From: an uncultured Acidobacteriota bacterium
GTDB lineage: Bacteria > Actinomycetota > Acidimicrobiia > Spongiisociales > ZC4RG35
Reading direction: 5' to 3'
Length of the DNA stretch: 64,000 bases
Assembly: GCA_963810465.1 (NCBI GenBank)
Contig: CAWENM010000002.1
Span: forward strand, 451,001-515,000
The notes under the pieces were generated by a model. It did no database searches and was not told where the DNA came from. It saw nothing but the letters and a program-made list of their open reading frames with translations. A program made the position numbers and the translations under genes. Shown here piece by piece: positions 3,790-47,324 of the stretch (its first letter is position 1; every line of letters begins with the position of its first letter).

Positions 3790-3868
3790 ATTGGGACTCC
3801 TTGGTGATTGGGGCGCGAATGGTACAGGCCACTGATCTGGTTGAGTTGGGCTCGGCTGGCGGCCCGGA

Positions 3869-4720
3869 TCAGATCAACTTTGCGATCGAGGTCTCGGCGC
3901 CTCGTGAGAGCCTGGTCAGAGGTTCCCTGGGGTGTCCCGGGTCGAGACCCGCCGCCTTGGCGGCCGCCTTGACACCAGGCACGCCGTGAGCCTCGACATC
4001 GGAGCTGATGGCGCTGAGTCGCTTCTGCAGCTTTCTTGCCTTGGCGGGGTCGGCCTTGGCTGCGGCCAGAGTCTGGAGCACCAACTCGGGCACGTAGTTG
4101 CCTGACCCGGTGATGGCTCCGTGACAGCCAATGGCCATCGCCGCGGTGAGAGCTCGGGACGACCCGGAGTAGAGGAGAAAGTCCGAAGGCGAAGCATCGA
4201 TGATCGATTGGAGCCGCACCACATCGCCACTCGAGTCCTTCATGCCCACGATGTTGTCGTGTCGGGAGAGCCGCCACACGAGCTCGAGCGGGAGGTTGTA
4301 CCCGGTCACCGAAGGTACCGAGTAGAGGAAGACCGGAGCCGTCGACGTGTCCGCGATTGTCTTGTAGAACCGGAGAACAGCCTCGTCCCGCCCTCGGGTC
4401 AGGGTGGTTGGCGTCATCACCAGGATGCTGTCGGCGCCGCCTTCGATGGCCTCCTCTACCTGGTGCAACGCGACCCGGGTCGACTCGGCAGCTATCCCGA
4501 TCATGAAATGGGACTTTCGCCTACGCCCTGCCTTCACCAACCGGAATCGCTCACCGGGCTCCAGATACGGCCCTTCCCCGTTCGACCCACCGATGACAAA
4601 ACCATCGATGCCTGCTGCGGCCAGCAACCGGAGGTTGGTGGTGTGCGCCCTGGTATCGATCTCCCCGCCCCGCGTGAAGGGCGTGATCAAGGCAGGCATG
4701 TAGTCGGGTGGGGGCAGCAT
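3869..4720 (-). CDS. dihydrodipicolinate synthase / N-acetylneuraminate lyase family aldolase
   Basis: 283 aa; GGSNGEGPYL (GxxGE motif) and the Schiff-base lysine context IVGMKDSSGD match the DapA/NAL class I aldolase family. The exact substrate cannot be assigned. Confidence 0.8.
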   Translation of the reverse strand: MLPPPDYMPALITPFTRGGEIDTRAHTTNLRLLAAAGIDGFVIGGSNGEGPYLEPGERFRLVKAGRRRKSHFMIGIAAESTRVALHQVEEAIEGGADSILVMTPTTLTRGRDEAVLRFYKTIADTSTAPVFLYSVPSVTGYNLPLELVWRLSRHDNIVGMKDSSGDVVRLQSIIDASPSDFLLYSGSSRALTAAMAIGCHGAITGSGNYVPELVLQTLAAAKADPAKARKLQKRLSAISSDVEAHGVPGVKAAAKAAGLDPGHPREPLTRLSRGAETSIAKLI

Positions 4721-4745
4721 GCCGCCAGCCTAGAAGTGCTTGACC

Positions 4746-6242
4746 TCAGTCGATGAGGTGGATCGGGTTCCCGATCATGTAGGCCCGCCAGGTCGTGGTG
4801 TCGTTCACCGCCGACGGGTAGGCGTAGCTCATCTTCCACCAGCAGTTGGTGCAGGAGTACGCCGCAGGCAGATCCATCTCGAACTTGAGCCAGCGTCCGT
4901 TGTACTCACCGGGGGCCACCGATTCCTGGCAGTTGGTCCCACTGGGGATGGTTGCTTGCAGGTTCCAGGCCACGGTCGGGTTGTTGCGGCTGTAGATCCG
5001 GCACTGGCCGTCGTTGAAAACGCTCGCCGTGGGATCGACCACGGCCAGGGTCCCATTGGCGGCCGACTCCCCGGCGTCGTACAACTCCACCACGAAAGTC
5101 TTGCCGTGGTAATAGGTGGGCACTTCTGCCAGGTAGAAGGAGGTTGTTGTGCCGCTGGCGTTGTTGTAGATGGAGAAATCACCGAGGGCGAACAGCTTGG
5201 CCCCGTTGAGGTTGGCTCGGACCGAGTAACGATTCAGACCGGCCCGGTCGACCGTGGCGCCGGGGTCTTGAACTGCGATCTGGAGGACATAGATCCCGGT
5301 GCCGGACTGAGTCCAACATGCGTTGCCGTTTGGCGTCGCCCAGCCGTAGGCGGCGGTGGGGAGTACCTGCCCGGCGGGGCTGAGGGTTGCCGTACACAAC
5401 GGAGCGGCATTGTCGGAGAGGTCGAGTGGTGTGGGGTCCGGAGCGTAGAGCCTGACCACCATGGTCGGCCCACAGGTGGCGGCCGCGCTCGGGGTCCAGT
5501 CCTCGCACCCACGGTCACCGGTGCGAATGGTGTCACTGGTGGGGTTGCCACCAGAGGTGTTGAAGAATCTGAGGTCGATCCCCTGGATCGTGAAGGGGCC
5601 GGTCCCCCTCTCGATTCCGTAGAGATAACCACCCGGTCGGGCGATCGGGTTCGCGGTACAGGTGGGGACATCCGAGCTTCCGACACAGTGCGATGTGTAG
5701 GCATCACCCATGCTGGTGTCGGTGAACCATCCATGGATGTTGGCCCAGAAGTTGGGCTGTCCGGACGGGCAGCCGGCCGACCCCGGAGCGCAGCCGTTGC
5801 CGAAGTCGCCGGCTGGGCTCCCCAATTTCAACGGCGGTATGTACTCAGCTACCGCCGACCGCTCAATCGTCATCTCGTCGAAGCCGAGCGCGCCGAGGAA
5901 GAAGGTTGGCACCACGTCTTGGACCGATACACCGAGCTGGTTCGGCTCGCCGGTCACTGCACCGGAGCTGACCACCACATCGGCGTCGGCGTCGTTGTAT
6001 CCATTTTGCAGTGCGGTGGCGAGGGCAGTGCTGTTGGCCGTGCCGGTGTTGGCGGGCAGCCAGACGACACCGCCGAGGGCGGCGGCGTCCGCGGCTCGCT
6101 GTACGCGGCTGGCGTTCAGATAAAACCAAGCAAGGTCGGTGCCGAAGGCGGCCATCCCCAAGAGAAGCACCATCGACATGGCGACCAGGATCATGGCTGT
6201 GCCATTGTCCTTCTCGCGAGCTCTCTCGAACAGTTTCCTCAT
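4746..6242 (-). CDS. large TadG-like pseudopilin: TadG N-terminal domain plus about 380-aa domain with 14 cysteines (copy 1)
   Basis: 498 aa. The N-terminus (GTAMILVAMSMVLLLGMAAFGTDLAWFYLNASRVQRAADAAALGG) matches the Flp-pilus-assembly TadG N-terminal (Tad_N) domain. The remainder is Cys-rich with no vWA MIDAS motif. Start ATG 6242 overlaps the stop of the upstream TadE-like gene (ATGA). Confidence 0.8.
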   Translation of the reverse strand: MRKLFERAREKDNGTAMILVAMSMVLLLGMAAFGTDLAWFYLNASRVQRAADAAALGGVVWLPANTGTANSTALATALQNGYNDADADVVVSSGAVTGEPNQLGVSVQDVVPTFFLGALGFDEMTIERSAVAEYIPPLKLGSPAGDFGNGCAPGSAGCPSGQPNFWANIHGWFTDTSMGDAYTSHCVGSSDVPTCTANPIARPGGYLYGIERGTGPFTIQGIDLRFFNTSGGNPTSDTIRTGDRGCEDWTPSAAATCGPTMVVRLYAPDPTPLDLSDNAAPLCTATLSPAGQVLPTAAYGWATPNGNACWTQSGTGIYVLQIAVQDPGATVDRAGLNRYSVRANLNGAKLFALGDFSIYNNASGTTTSFYLAEVPTYYHGKTFVVELYDAGESAANGTLAVVDPTASVFNDGQCRIYSRNNPTVAWNLQATIPSGTNCQESVAPGEYNGRWLKFEMDLPAAYSCTNCWWKMSYAYPSAVNDTTTWRAYMIGNPIHLID

Positions 6243-6796
6243 TGTGTGCCTCGGGTATCGGGCTCGATCTGCATCACTGCAGACTCGGTCCAGTTGACGG
6301 TTGGGAAGGGGAAGATCCCGGTGATGTCGGTGTGGGAGAAAATGACTTCGACACCGAGGTCATCGAAAGTGGGCGGCACCCGGTCCCGACTGGCCGGCGC
6401 CCATGGGCAGCCGTTGACACAGCCGAGATTGGTGGCGGCGCTGTCACATGCCAGCGCTGCGGTCGGCTCGTACACGTTGACCGACCCGGTTATCGGATTA
6501 CCCGCCGCGTCGGCCTTGTAGATACGTACTTCTTCCAGGTCGCCGAAGTTGAGGTTGCAGGCGGACTCTTCTACGGCGGCGAGAATCAGATCGTCGGCGT
6601 CCTTCCCCGAGACAATGTCGTTGAAGTTCGCAGCAGCGGCGCCCGTACGAGCTCCCTCACGGGCCGAGTTGCTGACCGTGAGATAGTCCACGACGAGGAA
6701 GCCGACCTCGGAGAGCCCGATGGCCATCAGAATCAGCAGAGGGAGGACTATCGAGGCCTCGATCAGACTGGCGCCCTTCTCGAATCTGTTTCTCAT
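6239..6796 (-). CDS. TadE/TadF-like minor pilin (copy 1a)
   Basis: 185 aa. N-terminus MRNRFEKG|ASLIEASIVLPLLILMAIGL shows the class-III prepilin leader with G/xxxxE and the TadE-like hydrophobic segment. 4-nt overlaps link it to both neighbours. Confidence 0.8.
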   Translation of the reverse strand: MRNRFEKGASLIEASIVLPLLILMAIGLSEVGFLVVDYLTVSNSAREGARTGAAAANFNDIVSGKDADDLILAAVEESACNLNFGDLEEVRIYKADAAGNPITGSVNVYEPTAALACDSAATNLGCVNGCPWAPASRDRVPPTFDDLGVEVIFSHTDITGIFPFPTVNWTESAVMQIEPDTRGTQ

Positions 6797-7398
6797 GAGG
6801 TGCCGAACACCTGTGGTTCGACCTGGAAATCGGTGGAGGCGGTGAAGTCTGCGTCCGGCGTGAAGTACCCGGTGAGCCAGACGTGGGTGAAGTCGACCGC
6901 GACACCGATCCGGTCGGTGGTTGGAGCTTCGACATCACGGTCTGCCGGATCCCAGACGGGGGTGACATAGGTGGTGCGGAAGGGCTCGGGGCAAGGGGAC
7001 CAGTCACAACAACCGGGGAGGGCGGGAGAGGAGGTGCTGGCACAGCCGGTGCCTGGGGCATAGTTGTAGGTGGTCGATTCGCCTAGAGGAGTGGCTTCGA
7101 AAATCCTGGCGGTCATGCCATCCGAGATTCCCGCCGGCGACAGCGTCTGCTCGATGTCCCGGAGGATCTGTATGTCGGCCCGCGGATCGTCGCCATAGGT
7201 CGCTCCAGCCCTGGCGCCTTCACGTGCTGCATGGCTCACCGAGAGCCAGTCCTTGAAGGCGAGACCGAACTCGACGACTGCGAACAGGGTCAGAAAGAGC
7301 AGGCCGTACACAATGGCCGCCTCGACCAGCGTTGCCCCGCGCTCACGCCCGGGATCGCCCCGATCGATGATGCCCCTGATGCCTTTCACTGCCTTCAC
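6793..7398 (-). CDS. TadE-like minor pilin (copy 1b); start uncertain
   Basis: The ORF runs to a TTG at 7491, but the paralog at 9607..10185 has only a 10-aa leader before RG|ATLVEAA. A GTG at 7398 (GGTGGAAAGAC spacer) or a GTG at 7389 are more plausible starts. The TadE domain is ATLVEAAIVYGLLFLTLFAVVEFGLAF. Confidence 0.65.
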   Translation of the reverse strand: MKAVKGIRGIIDRGDPGRERGATLVEAAIVYGLLFLTLFAVVEFGLAFKDWLSVSHAAREGARAGATYGDDPRADIQILRDIEQTLSPAGISDGMTARIFEATPLGESTTYNYAPGTGCASTSSPALPGCCDWSPCPEPFRTTYVTPVWDPADRDVEAPTTDRIGVAVDFTHVWLTGYFTPDADFTASTDFQVEPQVFGTS

Positions 7399-7516
7399 GT
7401 CTTTCCACCCACCCGGGCATTGCGTTGCCCAATGACTGGGGGTACTTCGGCAGAAACGGCCAATTACTGAAGGCGATTTGGCCAAGAGCAAGGATTGGGT
7501 TCGCCAGACCCAAGAG

Positions 7517-7537
7517 AAACCTCAACCCAGAGTGGGG
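7517..7537. promoter_or_regulatory. conserved upstream element AAACCTCAACCCAGAGTGGGG, copy A (a second AGAGTGGG lies at 7551-7559)
   Basis: Shared 16-18-nt motif (AACCT[AC][AC]CCCAGAGTGG) found upstream of both pseudopilin cassettes. See copy B at 10231..10246. Confidence 0.35.
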
Positions 7538-7574
7538 AGGCGTCACTGAGAGTGGGCGAACGGTCGCCCGTCTT

Positions 7575-9074
7575 CTACTCGACCAGGTGGATCGGGTTGC
7601 CGATCATGTACGCCTTCCAGGTGGTGGTGTCGTTGACACCCGATGGATAGGCGTAATTCACCTTCCACCAGCATCCGGGTACACCACCCTCGGTACAGGC
7701 GTACTCGGGGGGCAGGTCCATTTCGAATTTGAGCCAGCGGTCGTGGTATTCCTGTGGGGTCACTGTCTCCTGGCACGGGCTGCCGGCGGCGATCGTGTTC
7801 TGCAGGCTCCAGTCCTGTCCCGGGTTGCCCCGCGTGTAGATCCGGCATTCTCCGTCATTGAAGACGGACCCGTCCGGGCTCACCATCTGCAGAGTCCCGG
7901 TTGCGGCCGACTCACCGGCGTCGAAGAACTCGACCACGAAGGTCTTGCCGTGGTAGTAGGTGGGGACTTCAGCCAGGTAGAACGCGGTGGTCGACCCGCT
8001 GGCGTTGTTGTATATCGAGAAGTCACCAAGTGCGTACAGCTGCCCGGAGGACGACTGGATCGAGTATCTGTTCAGGCCTGCTCGGTCGACCGCCCCCCCG
8101 GGGTCGACATGACGGACCTGCACCACATAGACACCCGGTCCCGACTGAGACCAGCACCCCTGGCCGTCGGGCGCCGAGAAGGCGTAGGGATCCGGGTCCA
8201 GCCCTTGGGGCAACGGCGGGATTGTGGCCTGGCAGAGGAGTGCGTTGTCAGTGACATCGAGAGGGGTTGGGTCCGGGGCGTAGAGGGCGACGTACATGGT
8301 CGGCCCACAGTCGGGAGCAGTGCTCCCTGTCCAGTCCTCACAGCCACGGTCGCCCGTGCGAATTCCATCGTTGGTCGTGTTCCCACCCGAGGTGTTGTGG
8401 AAGGCGATGTCGTTGAACTGGAGGGTGAAACTCGATCCGGACTCGATGCCGTAGAGGTATCCGGTGCTGCGGGCGAATGCGTTCTGGCTGCATCCGGGGT
8501 TGTCGTTGGCATTGGTGCACCACGACGAGTAGGCATCCCCCATCTCGTTGTCGGTCCACTTGCCATGGATGTTGGCCCAGAAGTTTGCCTGACCGGTGCA
8601 CCCTGGCTGCTCCGGATCGCACGAGTTGCCGAATTGATTATCGGGGCTGCCCAGTTTCAACGGCGGGATGTACTCGGCAACCGCGGTCCGTGAGATGTCC
8701 ATCGTGTCGAACCCGAGCACCTTGGCGAAGAAGGTCGGCACCACATCGTTGATCGTCACCTTCAGCTTGTTGGGCTCACCGGGTACCGCTGCCGGCAGGA
8801 CTTCGACATCGGTGAGGCCGTTGTCGTATCCGTTACGGAGTGCGATGTCGACTGCTGTGGCGTCGGCCGTGCCCGGCTGTCCCGGCAGCCAGATGACACC
8901 GCCGAGAGCCGCGGCATCGGCAGCCCTCTGCATCCGGCTGGCATTGAGATAGAACCAGCCGAGGTCGGTTCCGAAGGCGGCCATTCCCATCAAGACGACG
9001 AGCGATGCCGCCACCAGGGCCAATGCGGCGCCGCGGTCCTCACGTTCCTTGAATTGCCTGAAGAGGCGTCTCAT
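7575..9074 (-). CDS. large TadG-like pseudopilin with domain of 14 cysteines (copy 2, paralog of 4746..6242)
   Basis: 499 aa; same architecture as copy 1 with all 14 Cys positions and long blocks conserved (FYLAEVPTYYHGKTFVVE, WLKFEMDLP, YMIGNPIHL). Confidence 0.8.
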   Translation of the reverse strand: MRRLFRQFKEREDRGAALALVAASLVVLMGMAAFGTDLGWFYLNASRMQRAADAAALGGVIWLPGQPGTADATAVDIALRNGYDNGLTDVEVLPAAVPGEPNKLKVTINDVVPTFFAKVLGFDTMDISRTAVAEYIPPLKLGSPDNQFGNSCDPEQPGCTGQANFWANIHGKWTDNEMGDAYSSWCTNANDNPGCSQNAFARSTGYLYGIESGSSFTLQFNDIAFHNTSGGNTTNDGIRTGDRGCEDWTGSTAPDCGPTMYVALYAPDPTPLDVTDNALLCQATIPPLPQGLDPDPYAFSAPDGQGCWSQSGPGVYVVQVRHVDPGGAVDRAGLNRYSIQSSSGQLYALGDFSIYNNASGSTTAFYLAEVPTYYHGKTFVVEFFDAGESAATGTLQMVSPDGSVFNDGECRIYTRGNPGQDWSLQNTIAAGSPCQETVTPQEYHDRWLKFEMDLPPEYACTEGGVPGCWWKVNYAYPSGVNDTTTWKAYMIGNPIHLVE

Positions 9075-9610
9075 TGGCTGCCTCTGGTGTCAGGCTCGAT
9101 CTGCATCACCGCGGTCTCGTCCCAGTCGACAGTGGGGAAGGGGAAGATCCCGGTCACGCTTGTGTGAGAGAACGTGACCTCCACGCCGAGGACGTCGAGG
9201 CCGGGCGGCTCCCGATCGCGGCCGCTCGCGGCCCACGGGCATCCGTTGTCACAACTTAGGGCATTGCCCGGCGAGTCACATGAGAGACTGCCACCTGGCG
9301 AGTATTCGTTGATTGCACCCGGGATGGGATCACCGACAGCGTCTGCTTTGAAGATGCGCACCTTCTCCAGATCCCCGAAGCGGAGGTTGCACGAAGCCTC
9401 CTCCACCGCATCGAGGATGAGGGCGTCGGCAGTAGGGAAATTGGCGGCAGCCGCTCCAGTGCGAGCCCCTTCCCTCGCGGCATTGGTCACGGTGAGGTAG
9501 TCGACGACCAAGAAGCCGATCTCGGAGAGCCCGATGGCGAGAAGGATCAGGATTGGTAGGACAAGCCCAACCTCCACCAACGAGGCCCCGCGCTCGAGCC
9601 GACGCCTCAT
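9071..9610 (-). CDS. TadE/TadF-like minor pilin (copy 2a)
   Basis: 179 aa, paralog of 6239..6796 (MRRRLERG|ASLVEVGLVLPILILLAIGL). 4-nt overlaps with neighbours. Confidence 0.8.
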   Translation of the reverse strand: MRRRLERGASLVEVGLVLPILILLAIGLSEIGFLVVDYLTVTNAAREGARTGAAAANFPTADALILDAVEEASCNLRFGDLEKVRIFKADAVGDPIPGAINEYSPGGSLSCDSPGNALSCDNGCPWAASGRDREPPGLDVLGVEVTFSHTSVTGIFPFPTVDWDETAVMQIEPDTRGSQ

Positions 9611-10185
9611 GACTCGAACACCTGTGGCTCGATCTGGAAGTCAGTCACGGTGGTGAAGTCGCTGGACGGGACGAAGTAGTTGGTCAGCCACTGATGGCTG
9701 AACTGCACTTCCACTCCGATCCGATCGAGATTGGGCGTCTCGACGTCCCGACTCGAAGGGTCCCAGCCGGGCACCTGGTAGGTGTCCCGGAACGGTTCCG
9801 GACAGGGTGTCCAGTCGCAACAGCCAACGAGTGGTGGGAGACCAACCGGGGTGTTGTCGCTGCAGTCACTTCCCGGTGAATACGAGTAGACCTCGCCGGT
9901 CCCGGGGGACGCAGCATTGAAGACGCGGACGTTCATTCCGTTGGCGATCCCCGCAGGAGCCAAGGTCTGCTCAACGTCACGAAGTATCTGGATGTCGGCG
10001 GTGGGGTCGTTGCCATAGGTGGCTCCAGCACGGGCGCCCTCGCGTGCGGCGTGACTGACCGAGAGCCAGTCCTTGAAGGCGAGACCGAACTCGACGACGG
10101 CAAAGAGGGCGAGGAAGAGGAGGGCGTAGACCAACGCCGCCTCAACGAGGGTGGCCCCTCTGTCGTCCCGTCTCTCGGTTGTCAT
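9607..10185 (-). CDS. TadE-like minor pilin (copy 2b)
   Basis: 192 aa, MTTERRDDRG|ATLVEAALVYALLFLALFAVVEFGLAF, paralog of 6793..7398. ATG start preceded by AGGGAACAGGGG. Confidence 0.8.
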   Translation of the reverse strand: MTTERRDDRGATLVEAALVYALLFLALFAVVEFGLAFKDWLSVSHAAREGARAGATYGNDPTADIQILRDVEQTLAPAGIANGMNVRVFNAASPGTGEVYSYSPGSDCSDNTPVGLPPLVGCCDWTPCPEPFRDTYQVPGWDPSSRDVETPNLDRIGVEVQFSHQWLTNYFVPSSDFTTVTDFQIEPQVFES

Positions 10186-10230
10186 TTGCCCCTGTTCCCT
10201 TTGGTCCCAGCAACCACGTTCGGTGAGCTG

Positions 10231-10246
10231 AACCTACCCAGAGTGG
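10231..10246. promoter_or_regulatory. conserved upstream element AACCTACCCAGAGTGG, copy B
   Basis: About 46 nt upstream of the ATG of the first gene of cassette 2 (minus strand). Matches the element upstream of cassette 1. Confidence 0.35.
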
Positions 10247-10319
10247 TCCCCCCGAATTCGCTCAGGCTACGTCGTAGATTTTCGCTGACAAGGGGTTACT
10301 ACGCCAAGGCCAAAAAGGA

Positions 10320-11078
10320 CTACTGCGCGACCAGCCGGCGGTTTTTCACCTTCGCCTTGAGGTAATCGGCGTTCATCATTGCAATGAAGTCGATCGAGAT
10401 CGACTTCGGGCACGCCTTCTCGCACTCTCCGTGGTTGGTGCACGACCCGAAGTACTGCTCCATCACCTCGACCATGTTCTCGGTTCGTGTCCATCTCTCG
10501 GCCTGACCCTGGGGGAGGAGGTTGAGATGACTGATCTTGGCTGCGGTGAAGAGATTGGCGGCGCCGTTGGGGCAGGCTGCGACACAGGCTCCGCAACCGA
10601 TGCACGCCGCCGCATCGAAGGCGATATCAGCAGCGGGCTTGGGAACGGGCGTGAGGTTGGCGTCGGGAGCCGACCCGGTGTCAACGGTGATGTAGCCGCC
10701 GGCTTCGATGATGTGGTCGAACGAGCTGCGGTCCACCACGAGATCTTTGACCAAGGGGAATCCCGCCGCCCGCCACGGCTCAACGGTGATCGTCGACCCG
10801 CTCTCGAACTTCCGCATGTGGAGCTGGCAGGTGGCGGTGCCGAGCTGGGGGCCGTGGGCCCGGCCGTCGATCATCACGCCGCAGGAGCCGCAGATGCCCT
10901 CCCGGCAGTCGTGATCGAAGGCAACCGGCTCATCTCCCTGGTTGACCAGACGCTCGTTGAGCACATCGAGCATCTCGAGGAACGACATCTCCTCGGAGAT
11001 CCCGGCCACCTCGTAGATCTTGAACCCACCGGGCCGGTCGGGGCCTTCTTGCCGCCAGATCTGGAGGGTCACGTTCAC
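10320..11078 (-). CDS. sdhB: succinate dehydrogenase / fumarate reductase iron-sulfur subunit
   Basis: 2Fe-2S motif [10 protein letters not shown], 4Fe-4S motif [12 protein letters not shown] and 3Fe-4S motif [15 protein letters not shown] start at 11078 overlaps the sdhA stop (GTGA). The upstream part of ORF 10320..11168 is read-through of the sdhA 3' end and is rejected. Confidence 0.9.
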
Positions 11079-13867: not shown

Positions 13868-14143
13868 ATGCAGAGCAAGCTCATCCAAGCCCTGGCTGTT
13901 GGTGAGCTTTCCTGGCAGGACTACGCCAACTGCCGTGGCGCCGATGCCGACCTCTTCTTCCCCGAGCGGGGGGCTTCCACCCGGAAGGCGAAGGCGATAT
14001 GCACTGCCTGCGAGGTGCGGGCGGAGTGTCTCGACTACGCAGTCGACATGGGCGAGAAATTCGGCATCTGGGGTGGTCTCAGCGAGCGTGAGCGACGTCG
14101 GGTCCGGCGCGAGCGAACCCAACGGGAACGCAAGGTCGGATAG
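13868..14143 (+). CDS. whiB: WhiB-family (Wbl) transcriptional regulator
   Basis: 91 aa; four conserved Cys (C22, C45, C48, C54), the GIWGG turn, and a basic C-terminal tail. Strong RBS AGGAGA. Confidence 0.9.
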   Translation: MQSKLIQALAVGELSWQDYANCRGADADLFFPERGASTRKAKAICTACEVRAECLDYAVDMGEKFGIWGGLSERERRRVRRERTQRERKVG

Positions 14144-14185: not shown

Positions 14186-14650
14186 CTAGAGGTAGAGGCC
14201 GGTCTGGTCCTCCTTCGGCCCGGCGGGCGAAGGTGGGATCAACGCTCTCTTTTGCATTTCCTGCAACTGGGACTGGGCAGCCATCTGCTGGCTCCACAAC
14301 GAGGCCTGGATCCCGTGGAACAGACCTTCCAGCCAGCCGATCAATTGGGCCTGGGCGATCCGCAGCTCAGCCTCACTGACACCCTCCCTGTCGAGGGGAA
14401 CCATGATCTCGTCGAACTCATCGAGGAGCTCTGGGGAGAGGATCTCTCTCAACTCGTCGAGTGATCGGGAATGGACGTCGGCGAGACGTCTCCGTCCCCC
14501 GTCATCGAGCGGCGCCTGCCGGACCTCCTCGAGCATCGCACGCGTCATCGATGCGATCCGAATGAGCTTCGTGGGCTCGGAGACCGGCGGCTCCTTCTGT
14601 TCCTCCTCCGGCACCTGCTCGACCGCGTCCGGCTTTACCGCTTCTTCCAT
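14186..14650 (-). CDS. bpa: bacterial proteasome activator (Bpa/PafE, Rv3780-like)
   Basis: 154 aa. The block SEAELRIAQAQLIGWLEGLFHGIQASLWSQQMAAQSQLQEMQ and the preceding TKLIRIASMTRAMLEEVRQAPLDD closely resemble my recollection of M. tuberculosis Bpa. It ends ...TGLYL, a variant of the Bpa C-terminal GQYL docking motif. Confidence 0.75.
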   Translation of the reverse strand: MEEAVKPDAVEQVPEEEQKEPPVSEPTKLIRIASMTRAMLEEVRQAPLDDGGRRRLADVHSRSLDELREILSPELLDEFDEIMVPLDREGVSEAELRIAQAQLIGWLEGLFHGIQASLWSQQMAAQSQLQEMQKRALIPPSPAGPKEDQTGLYL

Positions 14651-14728: not shown

Positions 14729-15724
14729 TTAGGCCCTGACCTCGTCGCGCATGAAGGCGATGTAGGCGGCGGCGAACATGACGGCCGTGAGGGCGACCAG
14801 GATGGCGATCTGGGGCCAAACCACTGCCAGGCTCTGGGTCAGGTTGAGCTCGGAGACGATGGCTCGGTCCACTTGTTCCACGGTGACCAGCCCGACGGTG
14901 CGCACCTCGGGGTCGAGCAGCACGCTCGAGCCCTGTTGAAAGAGGGTCACCGGCGACAGTTGTGACACGGTCTGGGCGGTTTGCTGGTAGGCGATCTCGG
15001 CCGCATCCGACCCATCTCTCGGGCTGAGGACACTGGCCACGGCGCTGAAAATGAAGGACCCGAACAGCGTTAGCACCAACCAGATGCCGAGGGGGATCAT
15101 GGCCGAGGTCGACGCCCGTTTCGATAGGACCGAGGTCAACGTGGCCAGGGCTTGCCAGAACCCGACATAGATGATGGCGAAGACCAGCCACACCGCAAGC
15201 CGTGAGATCTCGGTCGGCGTGGGCACCACCCCGAGTCTGAGGATCCCGATGCCAGACACGAACAGCACGAGGGCGGTGAGCATGATCGACACCACGGTCA
15301 GCCCGGCCACGAACTTGCCCAGGATCACCTCATCGCGGTGAATCGGCTGGGAGAGGAGCCGGGGCAGAGTCCCTTGTGAGCGCTCGCCGCTGACCGCGTC
15401 GAACCCGAACATGATCCCCAGGAGCGGGGCCAGAAACCCGACGAAGACGATGAGTGGGAACGGGACAGGGTCGGCGGTCACGGTGAAGAGCTTGAGGAAC
15501 AGCGCCGTGATCCCCTGGGCGTTGGGGGCGACGTCACGGATCCCGCCCGAGGCGGCGAAAACCGCGGCGGCGGTCGCGATTCCGAGCACCCCCATCAGGA
15601 CCACGAAGCGTCCCGAGAGCAGATGATCGGCGATCTCCTTTTGCGCCACCGCCCTCCATCCACCGACCCTGGTGGATTCGACGGCAGGGACCTCCTCGGC
15701 GACGACGTCTGCGTCAGTGGTCAT
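14729..15724 (-). CDS. ABC-2 family transporter permease
   Basis: ATG at 15724 (MTTDADV...) overlaps the ATPase stop (ATGA). Six TM segments and ABC-2 features. The longer upstream ORF portion is rejected. Confidence 0.8.
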   Translation of the reverse strand: MTTDADVVAEEVPAVESTRVGGWRAVAQKEIADHLLSGRFVVLMGVLGIATAAAVFAASGGIRDVAPNAQGITALFLKLFTVTADPVPFPLIVFVGFLAPLLGIMFGFDAVSGERSQGTLPRLLSQPIHRDEVILGKFVAGLTVVSIMLTALVLFVSGIGILRLGVVPTPTEISRLAVWLVFAIIYVGFWQALATLTSVLSKRASTSAMIPLGIWLVLTLFGSFIFSAVASVLSPRDGSDAAEIAYQQTAQTVSQLSPVTLFQQGSSVLLDPEVRTVGLVTVEQVDRAIVSELNLTQSLAVVWPQIAILVALTAVMFAAAYIAFMRDEVRA

Positions 15725-16671: not shown

Positions 16672-16672
16672 G

Positions 16673-17851: not shown

Positions 17852-17955
17852 GGTGATCAGAGCTCCTTCTTCATCGGTTTTGGGCACAAACACTGGAAAT
17901 GACCGCAGAGACCCTAAATCGATGATAAATCCATTGAGAAAACGGTGCGCCGCCG

Positions 17956-21195: not shown

Positions 21196-21242
21196 CGGCG
21201 AAGTGTATTGAGGGCGTTGTTCCCGAATTGTCTCGGTGCAGG

Positions 21243-21620
21243 TCAGATGTTGGCCAGCGGGTGCCCGGTGTCGGCCCGGACTTCGGTCCCGCAGAACTGG
21301 CAGTTCCGCAGACCCGGCGCCACCTTGGACTGGCAGGATGGGCACTCAACGATTAGGTCGCGAACTCGCTCGTCGTCGACTCCGTCCTGGAGATCGAGCT
21401 CGTTGATCTTCTCCATGAGCCGCTCCGGGGTGATCCCTTGCTCTTCGAGGAGGGCCAGGGTCGCCCGCATGATCATCACCAGGCGGTCGATTCGCTCGTT
21501 CAGGTCTTCGATCCGGTTGGTGTGGTGGGTCCCGTCGGCGACGGCGGCGCTTCGCGCCAGTGACGCAGCCTTCGCTGCCGAGGACTGGCCCATGCTGTAA
21601 CCGAGATAGAACTCGAGCAT
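21243..21620 (-). CDS. small protein with C-terminal CxxC...CxxC zinc ribbon
   Basis: Start taken at ATG 21620 (an alternative ATG lies at 21593). Helical N-terminal part, then ECPSCQSKVAPGLRNCQFCG. 48 nt upstream of the ATP-grasp gene on the same strand. Confidence 0.5.
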   Translation of the reverse strand: MLEFYLGYSMGQSSAAKAASLARSAAVADGTHHTNRIEDLNERIDRLVMIMRATLALLEEQGITPERLMEKINELDLQDGVDDERVRDLIVECPSCQSKVAPGLRNCQFCGTEVRADTGHPLANI

Positions 21621-22514: not shown

Positions 22515-23195
22515 TTGGCGACGAGTCCCTCTGCTCTGACGAGGGAAGCGGGCACCTCGGCACCGACCGTCCGGTCGGCTCGCTATCGACCTTCGCTGTC
22601 TCATTTGGCGATCGCTGTCGCTGTCGTCCTTGCCTTCGTCCTCAACTATCTCGCGCTTCAGAGTCGGGAAGCCACGACGTTGGTCGCCATAGCCGAGTCG
22701 TCGATCGCGGCCGGCTCTTCCCTCACCCCTGATCTCGTTCGATTTGCACCCTTGCCGGCTGACTTCGAAGGCATCGGACACTTGGTGAGGGAGGCCGATC
22801 TGGCAGATCTCGAAGGATGGATCGTCGGTCGCTCGGTCCGCGAGGGGGAGTTGATCGACCGCTCCCTCGTCGTCCGACCCGGCACCGGCGACGGGCTTCG
22901 CACGATGAGCATCCCGGTCCCGATCGAGCACGCCGCAGGAGCGACATTGGTGGTTGGCGATCGCGTGGACGTGATATCGATCGTTGGCGAGGAGCCGGTC
23001 TTCGTCGCAACCGACCTCGAAGTCGTCAGCATCGCCGACAGCACGCAGACCGGGCTGTCGGCAACGGGTCCCTATCACGTTGTGGTCGGGGTGAGCCCAC
23101 AACAAGCTCTGGCGCTGGCCCGTGCGATCGCTGATGGTTCCCTGGAGATCGTGCGTTCCACCGGCGCCGATGTTCTCGAAGAGGCAGACGGGTGA
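22515..23195 (+). CDS. cpaB: Flp pilus assembly protein CpaB/RcpC (SAF domain)
   Basis: 226 aa; N-terminal TM (LSHLAIAVAVVLAFVLNYLAL) followed by a beta-rich SAF-like domain. TTG start. The stop overlaps the tadZ GTG (GTGA). Confidence 0.75.
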   Translation: MATSPSALTREAGTSAPTVRSARYRPSLSHLAIAVAVVLAFVLNYLALQSREATTLVAIAESSIAAGSSLTPDLVRFAPLPADFEGIGHLVREADLADLEGWIVGRSVREGELIDRSLVVRPGTGDGLRTMSIPVPIEHAAGATLVVGDRVDVISIVGEEPVFVATDLEVVSIADSTQTGLSATGPYHVVVGVSPQQALALARAIADGSLEIVRSTGADVLEEADG

Positions 23196-24295
23196 CGACC
23201 GGTCCGCAGCTGGCGCTGGCCGCCTCCGCACGAGGCTGGCCGGACCGCCTTCACCGGTTCTTGCTCGATCATGGTGGAGGGAGAGTCCGCTCGCGGGTCA
23301 TGGGCCCGGATCAGGCGATGGCTGATCAGTACGAAGTCTTGTTCATCGACGACGTCTGCTCGTTCCTCACCCCACGCCTGGTCAGAACGGTTCGGGAAAT
23401 AGGACGGGAGATCGTCGGGGTGTACGACCCGGTCGATGCTCACGACGCCAAGCGGCACCTACTCGAGTGCGGTATCACCGACGTGATCGAACAGGATGCG
23501 GCTCCGGAGGAGTTCCTGGCGGCGGCCGAGGCCACCTTGCTCCATCGGGGAGACGCACCGTCGCCAGCAGTCGTCCCCGCGCCACGTTCGTTTCGTGTCG
23601 GTGTGCTCGGACCCATAGGTGGAGTGGGCTGCACCGAAATCGCGATTGGGATCGCCGCCAGCCTGTCTCTCTCGCGATCCACCCTGCTCATCGACTTGGA
23701 CGAGAGGACGCCGTCAGTGGCGCAGCGTCTCGACCTCCCATTGCATCCGAATCTCCTCACGGCCCTCGAGGCGGCCCATCACGTCTCTGGTTCGGTCAAT
23801 GAGGCGATCCTCGACCGTGGTCCAGTCGACGTGATCGGCGGGCTGGTCAACACGTTGTCGGCCCAGGACATCCCGCCCGTCGAGATCGAAGGGGTCCTCG
23901 ACGAGGTCGGAAGGGCCGGCTACGAAGTGGTGGTCGCCGATCTGGGAAGCCCGCGCCCTGACCGCCTCGACTATGTCCGTTTTCACGTCTTGATCGTGGT
24001 CGGTCTGGGAAATCCGGTGGGAATGTCACGGTTGGTGCGATCCGTCCAGGACCTGTCCTCGAGGACCGACGCGCCTGACACTGTCGCGCTGGTCAACCGT
24101 GTCGCCGCTGGGAGTCGCCGCCGTCTTGAGATGCGGGCAGAGATGGCCCGTCTGCTTCCGGCGGTGCCTTTGATTCTCGTGCCTGAGGAAAAGCGCCTCG
24201 AGCGCGCGTGCTGGGATGGCACCGCCATCGGGCGAGGTCCATTCGTCAAATCGGTGAGCCGTGTGGCGTCCCTGATCGATCGAGCGGCGGGATGA
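23192..24295 (+). CDS. tadZ: TadZ/CpaE-like pilus assembly protein (ParA/MinD fold, degenerate Walker A)
   Basis: 367 aa; receiver-like N-domain plus ParA-like domain in which the P-loop reads GPIGGVGCTEIA (canonical KGGVGKTT, with the Lys position occupied by Cys). Confidence 0.75.
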   Translation: MTTGPQLALAASARGWPDRLHRFLLDHGGGRVRSRVMGPDQAMADQYEVLFIDDVCSFLTPRLVRTVREIGREIVGVYDPVDAHDAKRHLLECGITDVIEQDAAPEEFLAAAEATLLHRGDAPSPAVVPAPRSFRVGVLGPIGGVGCTEIAIGIAASLSLSRSTLLIDLDERTPSVAQRLDLPLHPNLLTALEAAHHVSGSVNEAILDRGPVDVIGGLVNTLSAQDIPPVEIEGVLDEVGRAGYEVVVADLGSPRPDRLDYVRFHVLIVVGLGNPVGMSRLVRSVQDLSSRTDAPDTVALVNRVAAGSRRRLEMRAEMARLLPAVPLILVPEEKRLERACWDGTAIGRGPFVKSVSRVASLIDRAAG

Positions 24296-25563
24296 CGGTC
24301 GACGCCTATCACGAGATCAGGAGGCGAGCCCTCGAAAGAATCGACGGATCCGGGCTCGACCCGCAGCGAGACACGGCCCGGCTCGTCGAGCTGCTGCGGG
24401 CCACCGTCGACGACTATCAGCGACACGCACATATGGGTGAGACGCGATCGCTGGCAGACCCCGATGCGACAGTCCGCCGCCTGCTCCAATCCGTGTCCTA
24501 CTTCGGACCGCTGGGGGATCTTCTCGACCGCGAGGATGTGGAGGAGATCTTCATCGAGGGCGACCGAGTGACCTTTCTCGAAGCCGGGGGTCGGCTTCGT
24601 GGGTTGGATGTGCCGAGCTCCGAGTCGGAGAATCGCCAGGTAGTCGAGCGGCTGATGGCAGCCACCGATCGGCGGCTCGATGCGTCGCACCCTGTGTCCC
24701 AGGCTCGAATCCTCGATGGGTCGGCCCGCCTGACTGCGGTGATCCCGCCGGTGTCCGACCATCTCTCCGCCACCATCCGCCGTTACGCGCTCCGGAAGGA
24801 GACTCTCGCCTCCTTGGTCGAGCTCGGGTCGCTGACCCGCGGAGCAGCGGACTTCCTCAGTCTCGCCATGCGGGCGTCGACCTCCGTGATCGTGAGTGGC
24901 CCGCCCGGAGCCGGCAAGACCTCGTTCCTCTCTGCACTGATCGCCGCCGTCCCATCCGATCACTGCGTTCGGGCATGCGAGGAGATCCGGGAGTTGCACG
25001 TCCCGATCGTCCATGGGTCGTATTACGAGGCCCGGCCCCCATCGTTGGACGGAGGCGGGGAGATCAGCCTGCGGCAACTGGTCAAGGCCACACTCGCTAT
25101 GCGCCCCGACCTGATAGTCGTCGGCGAGGTCAGGGGAGGAGAGGCTTTCGAGTTGACTCGGGCAGTCAACGCCGGCTGCGGACTGGCATGCACCATCCAC
25201 GCCAACTCGGCGCCAGATGCCCTCGATGCCCTGGTCAACGCCGCGCTCATGGCCGGGGAGAACATCCCGGAGCGGGTCGTCCGGAAGGTCTTTGCTTCAT
25301 CGATCGATCTGGTCATCCATCTCGAGCGTGACATCGAACCGACCGACGGCGGCATCCGGCGAAGAACGATGGAGATCCGGGCTCTGGTCCCGTCTCTTCA
25401 CGAGGACTTCTCATCGGAGTCTCTGTTCCGGCGGGATCGCCTGGGTGGCCCGCTCGAATGGACTGGCTCGATGCCGCCGCAGTCCCTCGTTCGGCGCCTC
25501 GAGCGCGCGCTCACCGGGCAGACCAACTTGACCCAGGTGTTGGAGGGAGTAGCCAGTTGGTGA
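24292..25563 (+). CDS. tadA: Flp pilus assembly ATPase TadA/CpaF
   Basis: ATG at 24292 overlaps the tadZ stop (ATGA). Walker A GPPGAGKTS, and the Asp/His boxes of secretion ATPases. Confidence 0.9.
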   Translation: MTVDAYHEIRRRALERIDGSGLDPQRDTARLVELLRATVDDYQRHAHMGETRSLADPDATVRRLLQSVSYFGPLGDLLDREDVEEIFIEGDRVTFLEAGGRLRGLDVPSSESENRQVVERLMAATDRRLDASHPVSQARILDGSARLTAVIPPVSDHLSATIRRYALRKETLASLVELGSLTRGAADFLSLAMRASTSVIVSGPPGAGKTSFLSALIAAVPSDHCVRACEEIRELHVPIVHGSYYEARPPSLDGGGEISLRQLVKATLAMRPDLIVVGEVRGGEAFELTRAVNAGCGLACTIHANSAPDALDALVNAALMAGENIPERVVRKVFASSIDLVIHLERDIEPTDGGIRRRTMEIRALVPSLHEDFSSESLFRRDRLGGPLEWTGSMPPQSLVRRLERALTGQTNLTQVLEGVASW

Positions 25564-26426
25564 CGCTCGCTGCCGCCGTGGCGACTTCGCTGGCAGTGGC
25601 GCTCGTTTTCAGATGGGTGATGGTCGGCGTGAGAAGTCGGAACCGGCCCAAGCCAAAGAGGGCGGGATGGCTGAAGGAATCCGGGCTCGACATCACTCCC
25701 GGGCAGTTCTGGCTTGCTTCGCTCGGTGCCGGGTTCGGGACGTACGCAGTCGTATTCGCACTGACATCGCTTCCGATCGTTTCGCTGATGCCGTCCGTGG
25801 TTGTGGCAACCCTGCCCAAGGCGTACTTCTCTCGCAAGCGAGCCCAGCGGCTCGATGATGTGCAACGGGCATGGCCCGACGGGCTCCGCGACCTCCTGGC
25901 GTCGGTCAGATCGGGGGCGTCGCTTCCCACCGCTATCGAAGGTCTGGCCTCGTTCGGCCCGGCTCCTCTGCGGGTCGCCTTTCAAGGCTTCCCCGTGTAT
26001 TCGCACAGTCTCGGTGTCGTGCCCGCGCTCGAGATGATCAAGTCCGATCTGGCTGACCCGACCTCTGATCGTGTCATCGAAGTGCTGATCCTGGCCTACG
26101 AGCGGGGGGGCACGGTCGTGCCCGAGATTCTCTCAGATCTGGCCGATGCGACAACCAAGGACTTGTGGACCTTGGAGGAGATCCGCACCGACGCGCTCGA
26201 GCAGAAGATCAACTCGCGCATCGTGTTCATCCTTCCCTGGCTGGTCTTGGTGGCGATGACCGCCAGGGCGGGGCCATTTCGCGAGTTCTACGCGTCACCG
26301 ATGGGTGTGCTGGTTGCCGTCATCGGCGGGGTGATGAGCTTGGTCGGAGTGGTCATCGCCTCGAGACTCGGAGCTCAGCCGGCAGAGCCCAGGGTGTTCG
26401 TGTCGGCGCGGGGTGGTGGGGAGTGA
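25560..26426 (+). CDS. tadB: Flp pilus assembly membrane protein TadB
   Basis: GTG at 25560 overlapping the tadA TGA (GTGA). Polytopic membrane protein of the T2SS-F-like TadB family. Confidence 0.8.
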   Translation: MTLAAAVATSLAVALVFRWVMVGVRSRNRPKPKRAGWLKESGLDITPGQFWLASLGAGFGTYAVVFALTSLPIVSLMPSVVVATLPKAYFSRKRAQRLDDVQRAWPDGLRDLLASVRSGASLPTAIEGLASFGPAPLRVAFQGFPVYSHSLGVVPALEMIKSDLADPTSDRVIEVLILAYERGGTVVPEILSDLADATTKDLWTLEEIRTDALEQKINSRIVFILPWLVLVAMTARAGPFREFYASPMGVLVAVIGGVMSLVGVVIASRLGAQPAEPRVFVSARGGGE

Positions 26427-27349
26427 CGCTTACACCAGTCGTGCTGGCTGCAGCCGGGAGCACCGCCCTGGCTGCGGGCCTCGTGCTCTACGCCCTATTC
26501 CCCCCGGCTCGCAGCCTCGCCTCGAGGATCGTTCCCTACCTGAACCCGTCCGGTACGACGTCCCGCCGCGCCCCGACCGGCGGGCCGCTCGCCGTGGTGT
26601 TCGGGCCCATGTTTCGCTCGCTTGCGGCATCGGTGGGACGAGTGCTGGAGAGATCCGGGGAGAACGTGACGATTCTCGAGCTGCGGCAGGCGGGTTGGTA
26701 CCGGGAGGTGCCCGAGGAGGAAACCGTGCCGGCGTTTCGCATGGCCCAGCTTCGGACAATCTCCATCGCTGCCGGGTTGGCATTCCTCGTCGGGATGGTG
26801 CTGGGTTCCTCTCCTGTCCAACGCATCGTCCTCGTGGTTCTGGGCGTCGTGATCGGGGCGACTCGTCAGAGGGCATCTCTGCAATCGGCCATCGAGCGAA
26901 GGCGCGAGACGATGTGCATCGAGATCTACACGGTGAATCAGCTCCTCGCCATGCGGGTCCGGGCCGGAGGTGGCGTGGTGCACGCCGTCCAGGACGTGGT
27001 TCGTCGCGGAGAAGGCGAAGTCGTCGGCGAGCTCGCCGATGCACTCCGCTTGCATCGGGCGGGATGGCGCGCCGCCGATGCGTTTCGGCGGATCGCCGAG
27101 TTGACCCCGGAGCCGTTCTGCGGCCGCACCTACCGACTTCTGGCGACCGCCGAGGAGAGGGGAGCGGATCTCGCCCCGGCTCTTCTCGATCTGGCGGAGG
27201 ACGTCAGGGAGACACGTCGCGAGACAATGAGGCGATCGGCGACCAAACGCAGGGCAGCCATGTTGGTGCCAACGATCGCCATCCTGGCCCCAGTCCTTCT
27301 GCTCTTTGTGGCGGCGCCTCTTCCCTATCTGATCACTGGCTGGCGATGA
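26423..27349 (+). CDS. tadC: Flp pilus assembly membrane protein TadC
   Basis: GTG at 26423 overlapping the tadB TGA. T2SS-F-like fold with a C-terminal TM helix. Confidence 0.8.
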   Translation: MTLTPVVLAAAGSTALAAGLVLYALFPPARSLASRIVPYLNPSGTTSRRAPTGGPLAVVFGPMFRSLAASVGRVLERSGENVTILELRQAGWYREVPEEETVPAFRMAQLRTISIAAGLAFLVGMVLGSSPVQRIVLVVLGVVIGATRQRASLQSAIERRRETMCIEIYTVNQLLAMRVRAGGGVVHAVQDVVRRGEGEVVGELADALRLHRAGWRAADAFRRIAELTPEPFCGRTYRLLATAEERGADLAPALLDLAEDVRETRRETMRRSATKRRAAMLVPTIAILAPVLLLFVAAPLPYLITGWR

Positions 27350-27361
27350 AAGGAGGTTGAC

Positions 27362-27541
27362 ATGCTGGCCCTCAAGCAATGGCTCCAGGACGCGTGGGGC
27401 GACGACCGGGGACTGAACACCGCCGAGTTGATGGGGAACGCCGCTCTGGCGATTGCCGCACTCGTGGTGATCTGGGGCGCTCTTCAGGCACTTGGCGTGG
27501 ACATCGTCGGTTGGATCCGCTCGCAGCTGATCGGAGGCTGA
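27362..27541 (+). CDS. flp: Flp/Fap-family pilin precursor (59 aa; not in supplied ORF track)
   Basis: ATG 27362 is preceded by AAAGGAGG 7 nt upstream. The protein is MLALKQWLQDAWGDDRG|LNTAELMGNAALAIAALVVIWGALQALGVDIVGWIRSQLIGG: leader, then G with E at +5 (Flp G/xxxxEY-like cleavage motif), then a hydrophobic helix. Position after tadC matches the Bifidobacterium-type tad locus order. Confidence 0.7.
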   Translation: MLALKQWLQDAWGDDRGLNTAELMGNAALAIAALVVIWGALQALGVDIVGWIRSQLIGG

Positions 27542-27903
27542 GGGACCGGGGGGTCACCTCGGTTCAGTTCCTCCTTGCCAGCGGGCTGGGACTGCTGTTG
27601 TTTCTCGCCCTGGCCAATCTCGTTGTTGTTCAGTACGGACGGGGTGCCCTGCGGTCTGCGCTCGACCAGGGAGCCCGGGTGGGTGCGGTCAGCTCGTCGG
27701 AGGAGGAATGCCGGCAGAGGATCGAGGCCGTCCTCGGTCAGTTGCTCGGCGGCCGCATGGGCGATTCGGTCGTGACCGCCTGTGGGGTCGGGCCGGCGGT
27801 CGTGACTGCCTCCGGCCGCGCCGTGTTCGTCTCCTGGACCCCGTTCACTACCGATTTCGTCATCGAGATGACAGCACAGGCCACGAGGGAGTCACCACCA
27901 TGA
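27511..27903 (+). CDS. tadE: TadE-like pseudopilin (start uncertain)
   Basis: TadE N-domain ...RDRG|VTSVQFLLASGLGLLLFLALANLVVVQYGRGALRSALDQGARVGA. The only in-frame near-cognate starts after flp are TTG 27511 and CTG 27538. The ATG at 27379 would overlap flp entirely and is rejected. Confidence 0.55.
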   Translation: MDPLAADRRLRDRGVTSVQFLLASGLGLLLFLALANLVVVQYGRGALRSALDQGARVGAVSSSEEECRQRIEAVLGQLLGGRMGDSVVTACGVGPAVVTASGRAVFVSWTPFTTDFVIEMTAQATRESPP

Positions 27904-47308: not shown

Positions 47309-47324
47309 CCAGCCAGGAAGGCAC

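Follow-up and report, generated by a model that had tools for sequence, protein, structure and literature searches.

The window analysed here is a stretch of 64,000 nucleotides of contig CAWENM010000002.1, from an uncultured bacterium assigned to the class Acidimicrobiia, and our subject is a pair of large TadG-like pilins encoded near its beginning, referred to below as TadG-A and TadG-B, together with the C-terminal module that makes up most of each protein. Both genes lie on the minus strand between 4746 and 10185, a region occupied by two tandem three-gene cassettes (A and B), each consisting of two TadE-like genes and one TadG-like gene. The six genes, in the order of transcription, are as follows (a slash within a leader stands for the putative cleavage point):

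9607..10185, minus strand: TadE-like minor pilin of cassette B, 192 aa, leader ..DRG/ATLVE, 4 Cys, ATGA overlap
9071..9610, minus strand: TadE-like minor pilin of cassette B, 179 aa, leader ..ERG/ASLVE, 4 Cys, ATGA overlap with TadG-B
7575..9074, minus strand: TadG-like gene B, 499 aa, paralog of A, with the C-terminal module encoded at 7578-8672
6793..7398, minus strand: TadE-like minor pilin of cassette A, ~201 aa from GTG 7398, leader ..ERG/ATLVE, Glu at +5, 4 Cys, Pfam TadE E 1.9e-11, ATGA overlap with the following gene
6239..6796, minus strand: TadE-like minor pilin of cassette A, 185 aa, leader ..EKG/ASLIE, Glu at +5, 4 Cys, Pfam TadE E 2.5e-10, stop overlapping the TadG-A start (ATGA)
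4746..6242, minus strand: TadG-like gene A, 498 aa, consisting of a leader with the alpha1 helix, a pilin-like head and the C-terminal module, as delimited by Pfam Tad and Tad_C and by structural models

All four small proteins match Pfam TadE (PF07811, E 1e-10 to 1e-11). The internal gene junctions of both cassettes are without exception ATGA overlaps (4/4), which argues for translational coupling of the TadE/TadE/TadG genes. TadG-A and TadG-B are 64% identical end to end, and each TadE of cassette B is 69% identical to its counterpart in cassette A; given these values for the three genes (69%, 69% and 64%), the cassette was duplicated as a whole, its members diverging together. The two cassettes are flanked by sdhCAB upstream and by a DHDPS-family gene downstream, and the order sdhCAB-cassette-cassette-DHDPS is kept on a 2.6-Mb contig of a relative, where a third cassette is also present. 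Two ENA metagenome contigs, of 473 kb and 168 kb, encode a protein identical to TadG-A. Neither tblastn nor a family hidden Markov model (HMM) run on six-frame open reading frames (ORFs) found any copy of the module in the window beyond A and B. Scanning positions 3800-10500 for promoters and terminators gave nothing above shuffle expectation. By eye, a GC-rich hairpin, GGGCGAccgtTCGCCC, can be seen at about 7551-7566 on the minus strand, a few bases past the TadG-B stop; it lacks a T-tract, is absent from the output of the consensus terminator scan, and may act as a transcriptional boundary between the cassettes. The mechanically derived ORF of the first TadE of cassette A begins at a TTG at 7491, about 31 codons upstream of the public gene-call start (GTG 7398, 201 aa). 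The extension, which adds two cysteines, is probably an over-extension that is not translated.

The first-pass annotation, made from the letters of this DNA, had described two paralogs in which a TadG-type N-terminus is fused to a large extracellular domain, placing that domain at 4746-5900 and its second copy at 7575-8720. These intervals correspond to residues 115-498 of TadG-A and 119-499 of TadG-B, and the N-terminus is indeed of the Tad type in both proteins: Pfam Tad (PF13400) matches residues 14-59 with 30.8 bits in A and 34.5 bits in B, above the cutoff of 22.3. Pfam Tad_C (PF09977) follows at about residues 44-133, with 25.2 bits in B, above the cutoff of 22.1, and 17.4 bits in A, below it. 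Among 83 diverse relatives, all match PF13400 and 51 match Tad_C at E<=10. The module that follows spans about 365 residues, and we divided it into three parts, D0 (135-199), D1 (200-346) and D2 (347-498), using the numbering of TadG-A. The parts of TadG-A are these:

6066..6242, minus strand: residues 1-59, a charged leader ending in ..DN-G14, then the hydrophobic alpha1 helix 15-59, with Leu at +5
5841..6065, minus strand: residues 60-134, pilin-like head, one helix (66-79) followed by three strands that form a sheet (89-96, 99-112 and 123-134), from a weak Tad_C match and both structural models
5646..5840, minus strand: residues 135-199, D0 neck, mostly coil and Gly/Pro-rich, with Cys151/158, Cys186/195 and the invariant G141 and G179
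5205..5645, minus strand: residues 200-346, D1, first beta-sandwich, with Cys246/257, Cys283/309 and variable loops at ~234-260 and 284-300
4749..5204, minus strand: residues 347-498, D2, second and larger beta-sandwich, with Cys414/438, Cys464/467 and the invariant D389, the most conserved part

The leaders of the two kinds of pilin differ at one telling position. A G/A[ST]L[VI]E leader with glutamate at position 5 of the putative mature protein (Glu5) is present in all four TadE partners. Across the TadG family a conserved [ED]-R-G is followed by a hydrophobic stretch, G14 is kept in 108 of 116 members, and the +5 residue is W, L, I, F or M, never Glu. In type IV filament tip complexes the capping subunit is the one that lacks Glu5 (PMC10191384; PNAS 2026, PMC13533445), and TadG/CpaL fills the role played elsewhere by PilK/GspK (PMC10191384; PMC13533445). 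The layout of the pilin module described for CpaL (PMC12607857) is the same as that of residues 60-134 of TadG-A.

To describe the module itself, we modelled TadG-A with AlphaFold2 from two alignments, one of 66 close sequences and the other of 83 diverse ones. The two models (pLDDT, the predicted local distance difference test score, 88.6 with a predicted TM-score, pTM, of 0.83; pLDDT 90.5 with pTM 0.86) have the same secondary structure: helix 15-59, helix 66-79 and sheet 89-134, which together form a pilin 'lollipop', and then a practically all-beta stretch, residues 135-498. Since the pTM of the whole chain is high, the models suggest that the module is packed against the pilin part. D2 is predicted to have about 12 strands in its roughly 150 residues. 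It is also the region where the paralogs agree best, with 72% identity between A and B, while identity is lowest at residues 281-300 (35%) and 181-200 (40%). The C-terminal block DTTTWRAYMIGNPIHL, which makes up the last 18 residues and includes a short terminal strand (494-497), has the highest conservation in the family, whose C-terminal pattern GNP[IV][HR]L is strongly conserved. Insertions in family members cluster after residues 234-236, 284-292, 345, 155 and 464, and in the better of the two models the module falls below pLDDT 80 only at 241-260 and 291-300. The coincidence of identity minima, insertion hot spots and low pLDDT indicates that most of the variable surface lies in two D1 loops, which a Cys pair delimits in each case (246-257 and 283-309). 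Aligned to each other with hhalign, D1 and D2 give a probability of 60% and an E-value of 8.8e-5 over 80 columns, hinting that the two sandwiches may descend from an old internal duplication.

The cysteines of the module follow a pattern that chance would hardly produce. The first-pass annotation had counted 14 conserved cysteines; the actual number is 12 per protein, which in TadG-A are residues 151, 158, 186, 195, 246, 257, 283, 309, 414, 438, 464 and 467. In both paralogs all 12 lie after residue 150, that is, within the C-terminal module, and all 12 are aligned between A and B. The motifs it had quoted as examples are present in both proteins, namely (positions in A/B) GCEDWT at 245/244, CGPTM at 257/256, CRIY at 414/410 and CWWK at 467/468, and so are the blocks it had called perfectly conserved, FYLAEVPTYYHGKTFVVE at 369/365, WLKFEMDLP at 451/447 and YMIGNPIHL at 488/489. 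In the wider family, the number of module cysteines was observed to be even in every one of 116 diverse members, ranging from 2 to 16 with a mode of 10. Cys186, 195, 283, 309, 414, 438, 464 and 467 are each present in >=96% of these members, and the close subfamily has C151/C158 and C246/C257 in addition. C464 and C467 occur together in 112 members, are both missing in 4 and are never found singly, and one of the members without them still has 414/438. This parity and the patterns of joint presence and absence favour six sequence-local disulfides, which would be 151-158, 186-195, 246-257, 283-309, 414-438 and 464-467. Mean-field direct-coupling analysis, applied to 343 sequences (effective number, Meff, 221) both for the disulfide pairs and for a back-folding of the C-terminal strand, returned aromatic-biased noise and was discarded.

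Sequence searches failed to connect the module with any named family. It has no match in Pfam at E<=10 (a search that also covered the 83 diverse members), in NCBIfam, or in a phmmer search of all PDB chains, and a 14-sequence family profile compared with the PDB found nothing meaningful. Foldseek searches against the PDB and BFVD reached a TM-score of at most 0.25, the matches being PHM, tandem CBM22 modules, reelin, double jelly-roll capsids and phage tail proteins. We read these low-scoring matches as a generic multi-beta-sandwich architecture, not as homology. The models bear a weak resemblance to the PPC/collagen-binding domain and to carbohydrate-binding modules (CBMs). The sole recurrent weak sequence signal in the module is that of PPC (PF04151), which gives a sub-threshold match in 7 of the 83 relatives, with a best E-value of 0.0062 (the gathering score is 25.9 bits). 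In one of them, P0144, the match scores 13 bits at residues 355-399, in the D2 segment equivalent to 'FYLAEV..GKTFVVELYDAGE....L.VVDP'. A and B themselves have no PF04151 match even at E<=10. The collagen-binding domains of ColG and ColH share the PPC fold. The initial description of a domain with no recognisable named fold thus needs to be split. Its sequence part stands, as Pfam, NCBIfam and the PDB offer no named family; its structural part does not, as the models depict ordinary beta-sandwiches, possibly PPC-like, with weak similarity to collagen-binding domains and CBMs. A head of the von Willebrand factor A (vWA) type, the usual companion of TadG, was considered and rejected: DxSxS, the MIDAS motif (metal-ion-dependent adhesion site), is absent from both A and B, as had been noticed at the outset, there is no Rossmann fold, and neither protein has a vWA match. 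A confident match to some well-known domain had been named as the result that would overturn the initial view, and structure prediction, Foldseek and profile searches brought up none.

The module proved to be widespread within narrow limits. A phmmer search with the module alone retrieved 809 representatives of 50% identity clusters at E<=1e-3, of which 360 are found at E<=1e-10. It is always C-terminal, in proteins mostly of 450-620 aa, and was found only in TadG-like Tad_N proteins (83/83 diverse members carry the Tad N-terminus); long variants, reaching 793 aa, contain insertions without annotation and no other known domains. The source databases name these proteins 'TadG family', 'TadG-related' or 'hypothetical', and they come from metagenome-assembled genomes (MAGs) of Acidimicrobiia, from Microthrixaceae and from the cultured Dermatobacter hominis. 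A scan of one genome per species yielded 77 loci, almost all of them in Acidimicrobiia; several Microflora-Danica MAGs titled 'Acidobacteriota' are the same contigs as those in ENA. Two loci (L072 and L079) are in MAGs titled Chloroflexi and Boseongicola (Alphaproteobacteria), with 44% and 54% identity, and may be mis-binned Acidimicrobiia contigs instead of a spread beyond the class. Plasmid and phage collections searched by tblastn with the module gave no match and hence no sign of carriage by mobile elements. A literature search found no publication joining Acidimicrobiia with Tad pili.

The module habitually occurs in more than one copy. A second module copy lies within 6 kb in 49 of 83 related loci and a third in 11. 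Distinct A-type and B-type orthologs adjoin in many MAGs, the B-type with up to 94% identity, and the additional copies are only ~30% identical. The cassettes of relatives, made up of a TadG and one or two TadE genes, mostly stand by themselves among housekeeping genes; one relative, L001, has three cassettes, and in another, L083, the cassette stands directly beside a Tad machinery locus. The extra TadG heads of relatives are 26-35% identical to A and B (L001 16746-19245, minus strand; also L004, L008-L010, L022, L031 and others). They often stand in the order TadE-TadG-TadE or directly downstream of the first TadG, with up to three heads (<=3) per 13-kb locus. In L083 (14774-21503), large serine recombinases, an integrase and a Prim-Pol/AAA_25 gene interrupt or flank the Tad locus beside the cassette, which suggests that a mobile element has entered the DNA adjoining the pilus genes.

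The window also contains a candidate for the machinery that would assemble these pilins and a gene pair pertinent to their cysteines:

22515..28741, plus strand: Tad locus of the actinobacterial Rv3654c-3660c type, 13 kb from the cassettes
27362-27541, plus strand: Flp-like ORF of 59 aa within the Tad locus
28142-28741, plus strand: small Tad_N protein resembling Rv3654c
47325-47852, plus strand: DsbB-family protein, Pfam DsbB E 7e-14
47849-48505, plus strand: thioredoxin/redoxin-fold protein (AhpC-TSA/Redoxin), overlapping the DsbB-family gene

The Tad locus encodes CpaB-like and ParA/TadZ-like proteins, the TadA ATPase (best NCBIfam match TIGR03819, below cutoff) and TadB and TadC, the two T2SSF platform proteins; two small TadE-like ORFs in it have no Pfam match. 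There is no secretin in the locus (22515-28741), as is expected in a monoderm. We infer that this locus serves the cassettes. The DsbB-family and redoxin-fold genes, which are preceded by tRNA-Glu(ttc) (span 47236-48505, plus strand), likely act in extracytoplasmic disulfide formation, a function relevant to many exported Cys-rich pilins, and their presence in the window indicates an organism able to oxidise exported cysteines. The gene just past the Tad locus (29745-30251, plus strand) encodes a DsbA/FrnE-like protein with a thioredoxin domain, which has a CPWC motif and lacks an obvious signal peptide.

Some other genes of the window are worth recording. The Tad locus is directly followed by tRNA-Gln(ctg) and tRNA-Glu(ctc) (28814-29791 region); past these, on the minus strand, there are a 203-aa Cys/His-rich ORF with three 'C..HY.R.....G' repeats (29180-29791) and a small ORF (28998-29255). 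Here a tRNA site may hold an HNH-like or mobile remnant. Two actinobacterial markers, a small WhiB-like ORF at 13868-14143 and the bacterial proteasome activator Bpa at 14186-14650, are consistent with the assignment of the contig to Acidimicrobiia. At 15721-18313 (minus strand) a 546-aa protein with NPCBM_assoc, Fn3-like and Ig-like domains adjoins an ABC-transporter ATPase; it is probably a surface protein unrelated to the TadG heads. The genes at 18825-21345 (minus strand) form a conserved pair, the first coding for a circularly permuted ATP-grasp type 2 protein and the second for an Alpha-E domain.

Based on the domain composition, leaders and coupling of the genes, we think it fairly probable that each cassette encodes a heterotrimeric tip and initiation complex of a Tad (type IVc) pilus, in which TadG occupies the apex and carries a disulfide-stapled, non-vWA head. 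After cleavage of the leaders, the hydrophobic helix and the small pilin sheet of TadG would bundle with the two Glu5-bearing TadE pilins, as might be expected from what is known of the family, and TadG would be positioned at the very top of the complex because it lacks Glu5. The C-terminal ~365 residues, predicted with high confidence to be a neck and two beta-sandwiches and probably rigidified by about six local disulfides, would then sit on top of the fibre as its head, in the place that vWA takes in the classical TadG/CpaL. The disulfide-bounded, insertion-prone loops of D1 could serve as the ligand-contacting surface, and D2 with the invariant C-terminal strand as a conserved scaffold. 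By analogy with CpaL, this strand may fold back on the pilin module and so license assembly. The paralogous cassettes, two here and two or three in most relatives, could provide alternative heads for one pilus. Judging from nothing but the CBM- and PPC-like resemblance of the predicted fold, our best guess for the ligand would be a polysaccharide or a surface protein. The tip role put forward in the first-pass annotation is in keeping with the two Glu5-bearing TadE pilins, the TadG without Glu5, the ATGA overlaps and the literature on TadG/CpaL and Kil. Its wording, a domain 'delivered by the Tad machinery', is better replaced by one 'incorporated as a pilin subunit': the pilin itself includes the domain, which is not a cargo.

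Several points weigh against this interpretation. The heterotrimer is deduced from gene order and leaders only, and the members of the family are known from sequence and prediction alone. Likewise, the disulfide pairing and the back-folding of the C-terminal strand were derived by reasoning and not from model geometry. No prepilin peptidase (A24) was found among the window ORFs scanned, and the cognate machine is uncertain, because the nearest Tad locus is 13 kb away and has small TadE/Tad_N genes of its own. Finally, older work on Aggregatibacter regarded TadG as a membrane component of the machine and not as a subunit of the fibre (table in PMC10191384). If TadG is indeed such a bitopic, membrane-anchored assembly factor, neither processed nor polymerised, the module would reside in the cell-wall zone and might, for example, guide the pilus through peptidoglycan. 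The place of TadG in the cytoplasmic-membrane sub-complex of that review table (PMC10191384), the missing Glu5 and the lack of a peptidase nearby would all fit. Nonetheless, the conserved [ED]-R-G before the hydrophobic helix resembles a class III cleavage site, the pilin-like head has the same fold as that of CpaL, and translational coupling ties the gene to two bona fide TadE pilins, the machinery genes being mostly distant. Together with recent genetics that put TadG/CpaL in the tip complex (PMC12075869, PMC12607857, PMC13533445), this makes a membrane factor, in our estimate, distinctly improbable.

A tip subunit does not have to bind anything, and the module might be a structural cap or primer, comparable to the alpha-domain of GspK in the type II secretion system (T2SS), that caps the fibre and times its assembly without an external ligand, the paralogs being merely redundant. 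An assembly role would predict just the observed conservation map, with D2 and the extreme C-terminus as the most conserved parts, and no binding motif was found in the module. In Caulobacter CpaL, moreover, the C-terminal strand is needed for assembly and the ~470-residue middle is largely dispensable (PMC13533445). However, a pure cap would need neither disulfide-bounded loops of strongly differing length and sequence nor two or three ~30%-identical paralogs side by side in most genomes, and the maintenance of distinct A-type and B-type orthologs across many MAGs also speaks against redundancy. We therefore regard a cap devoid of a ligand as unlikely. The opposite extreme, a tip-borne hydrolase or lyase that degrades polymers or the envelopes of prey or host on contact, is very hard to credit. 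The structural neighbours are non-catalytic binding modules (CBMs, the collagen-binding domain and PPC) and not catalytic domains, Pfam, NCBIfam and the PDB offer no match to a catalytic family, and there is no conserved His/Ser/Glu constellation, with H495 replaced by Arg in many members. In view of this lack of any kind of catalytic-family signal, we rejected the enzyme. Returning to the tip complex with a ligand-binding head, it is tempting to speculate that one secretin-less Acidimicrobiia Tad pilus draws on an exchangeable repertoire of tips from tandem cassettes. Their stapled double beta-sandwich heads would be lineage-specific, with hypervariable D1 loops setting specificity, and would constitute an analogue of Kil tips in monoderms, with another fold for the head. 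We offer this wider proposal tentatively.

Until about 2025 Tad pili were credited with only two minor pilins. Recent work has changed this by showing that TadG/CpaL caps the fibre and carries its functional head. Minor pilins of the modular TadG type that carry a tip head, and paralogous tip cassettes too, are therefore already known, and with these descriptions from 2025-2026 the novelty is smaller than was implied at first. What Pfam, NCBIfam, the PDB and the searchable literature do not describe is the head family, with the disulfide stapling proposed for it, its confinement to Acidimicrobiia and its regular occurrence as tandem copies. In other words, a large head family replaces vWA across the class, usually with two or three divergent copies together. 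Acidimicrobiia are abundant, almost entirely uncultured actinobacteria of soil and water. If the heads are ligand-specific, they would be the best handle on the attachment targets of these environmentally abundant organisms, and the idea of exchangeable tips would be extended from a predatory diderm to monoderms. The cultured carrier Dermatobacter hominis makes this accessible to experiment. Since current annotation ('TadG family', 'hypothetical') covers only the first 130 residues, the family merits a Pfam/InterPro domain definition. No current view is overturned by these observations, and beta-sandwich heads on pilins are an expected variation.

Set against systems already described, the TadG proteins studied here share individual properties with several of them. 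With T2SS GspK and PilK of the type IVa pilus (T4a) they have in common the absence of Glu5, the proposed apical place and a large insertion between the pilin sheet and the conserved C-terminal strand. However, the insertion of GspK is an alpha-helical domain of ~180 residues, for which no sequence or fold match was detected here. The PPC superfamily (PF04151), which includes the s3 domains of the clostridial collagenases ColG and ColH, differs from D2 in that the latter is larger and would have disulfides of its own, and no family member tested reaches the gathering score. The same design, in which a pilin bears a grafted binding module and presents it at the tip of a type IV filament, is found in another monoderm, Streptococcus sanguinis, with the modular type IV pilins PilB (vWA module) and PilC (lectin module). 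They belong to T4a and not to Tad (type IVc, T4c) pili, their grafted folds are other ones, and there is no sequence relation.

The closest single-protein counterpart is CpaL of Caulobacter crescentus, a pilin module with a head at the tip of the Tad pilus (PMC12607857). In the heterotrimeric tip complex of Tad pili, TadG/CpaL proteins take the apical, PilK/GspK-like place alongside two TadE/F-type pilins (PMC12607857; PMC13533445). In CpaL the extreme C-terminal strand folds back, completes the pilin sheet and licenses assembly, and the large middle part is the functional head atop the tip (PMC12607857; PMC13533445). TadG-A and TadG-B resemble CpaL in the leader Gly, the long hydrophobic helix, the three-stranded pilin sheet and the lack of Glu at +5, in the large extra module after the pilin part, the conserved extreme C-terminus and the size of 500-600 aa, and in being encoded with two small minor pilins of the TadE/F type (CpaJ/K in Caulobacter). 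They differ in the head, which is not vWA and is predicted to be an all-beta neck with two beta-sandwiches and 4-6 disulfides, and in their context, a monoderm of the Acidimicrobiia without a secretin and with two or three tandem paralogous cassettes. In this last respect the Kil system of Myxococcus xanthus is closer, with four scattered TadE/F/G-like 'Tip' clusters that are exchangeable and partly redundant (PMC12075869). As in the case studied here, several paralogous three-gene clusters of TadE/TadF/TadG-like proteins (KilL/KilM/KilN) lie apart from the machinery genes, the C-terminal domain of the large TadG-like subunit KilN has no homologue in the PDB, and the proposed function, exchangeable tips on one pilus, is the same. 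By its published description, the KilN domain consists of two long alpha-helices and a beta-scaffold (PMC12075869), whereas the heads of TadG-A and TadG-B are predicted to be all-beta and Cys-stapled. The Kil clusters, moreover, are scattered over the genome of a predatory diderm, whereas those of the Acidimicrobiia are arranged as tandem cassettes.

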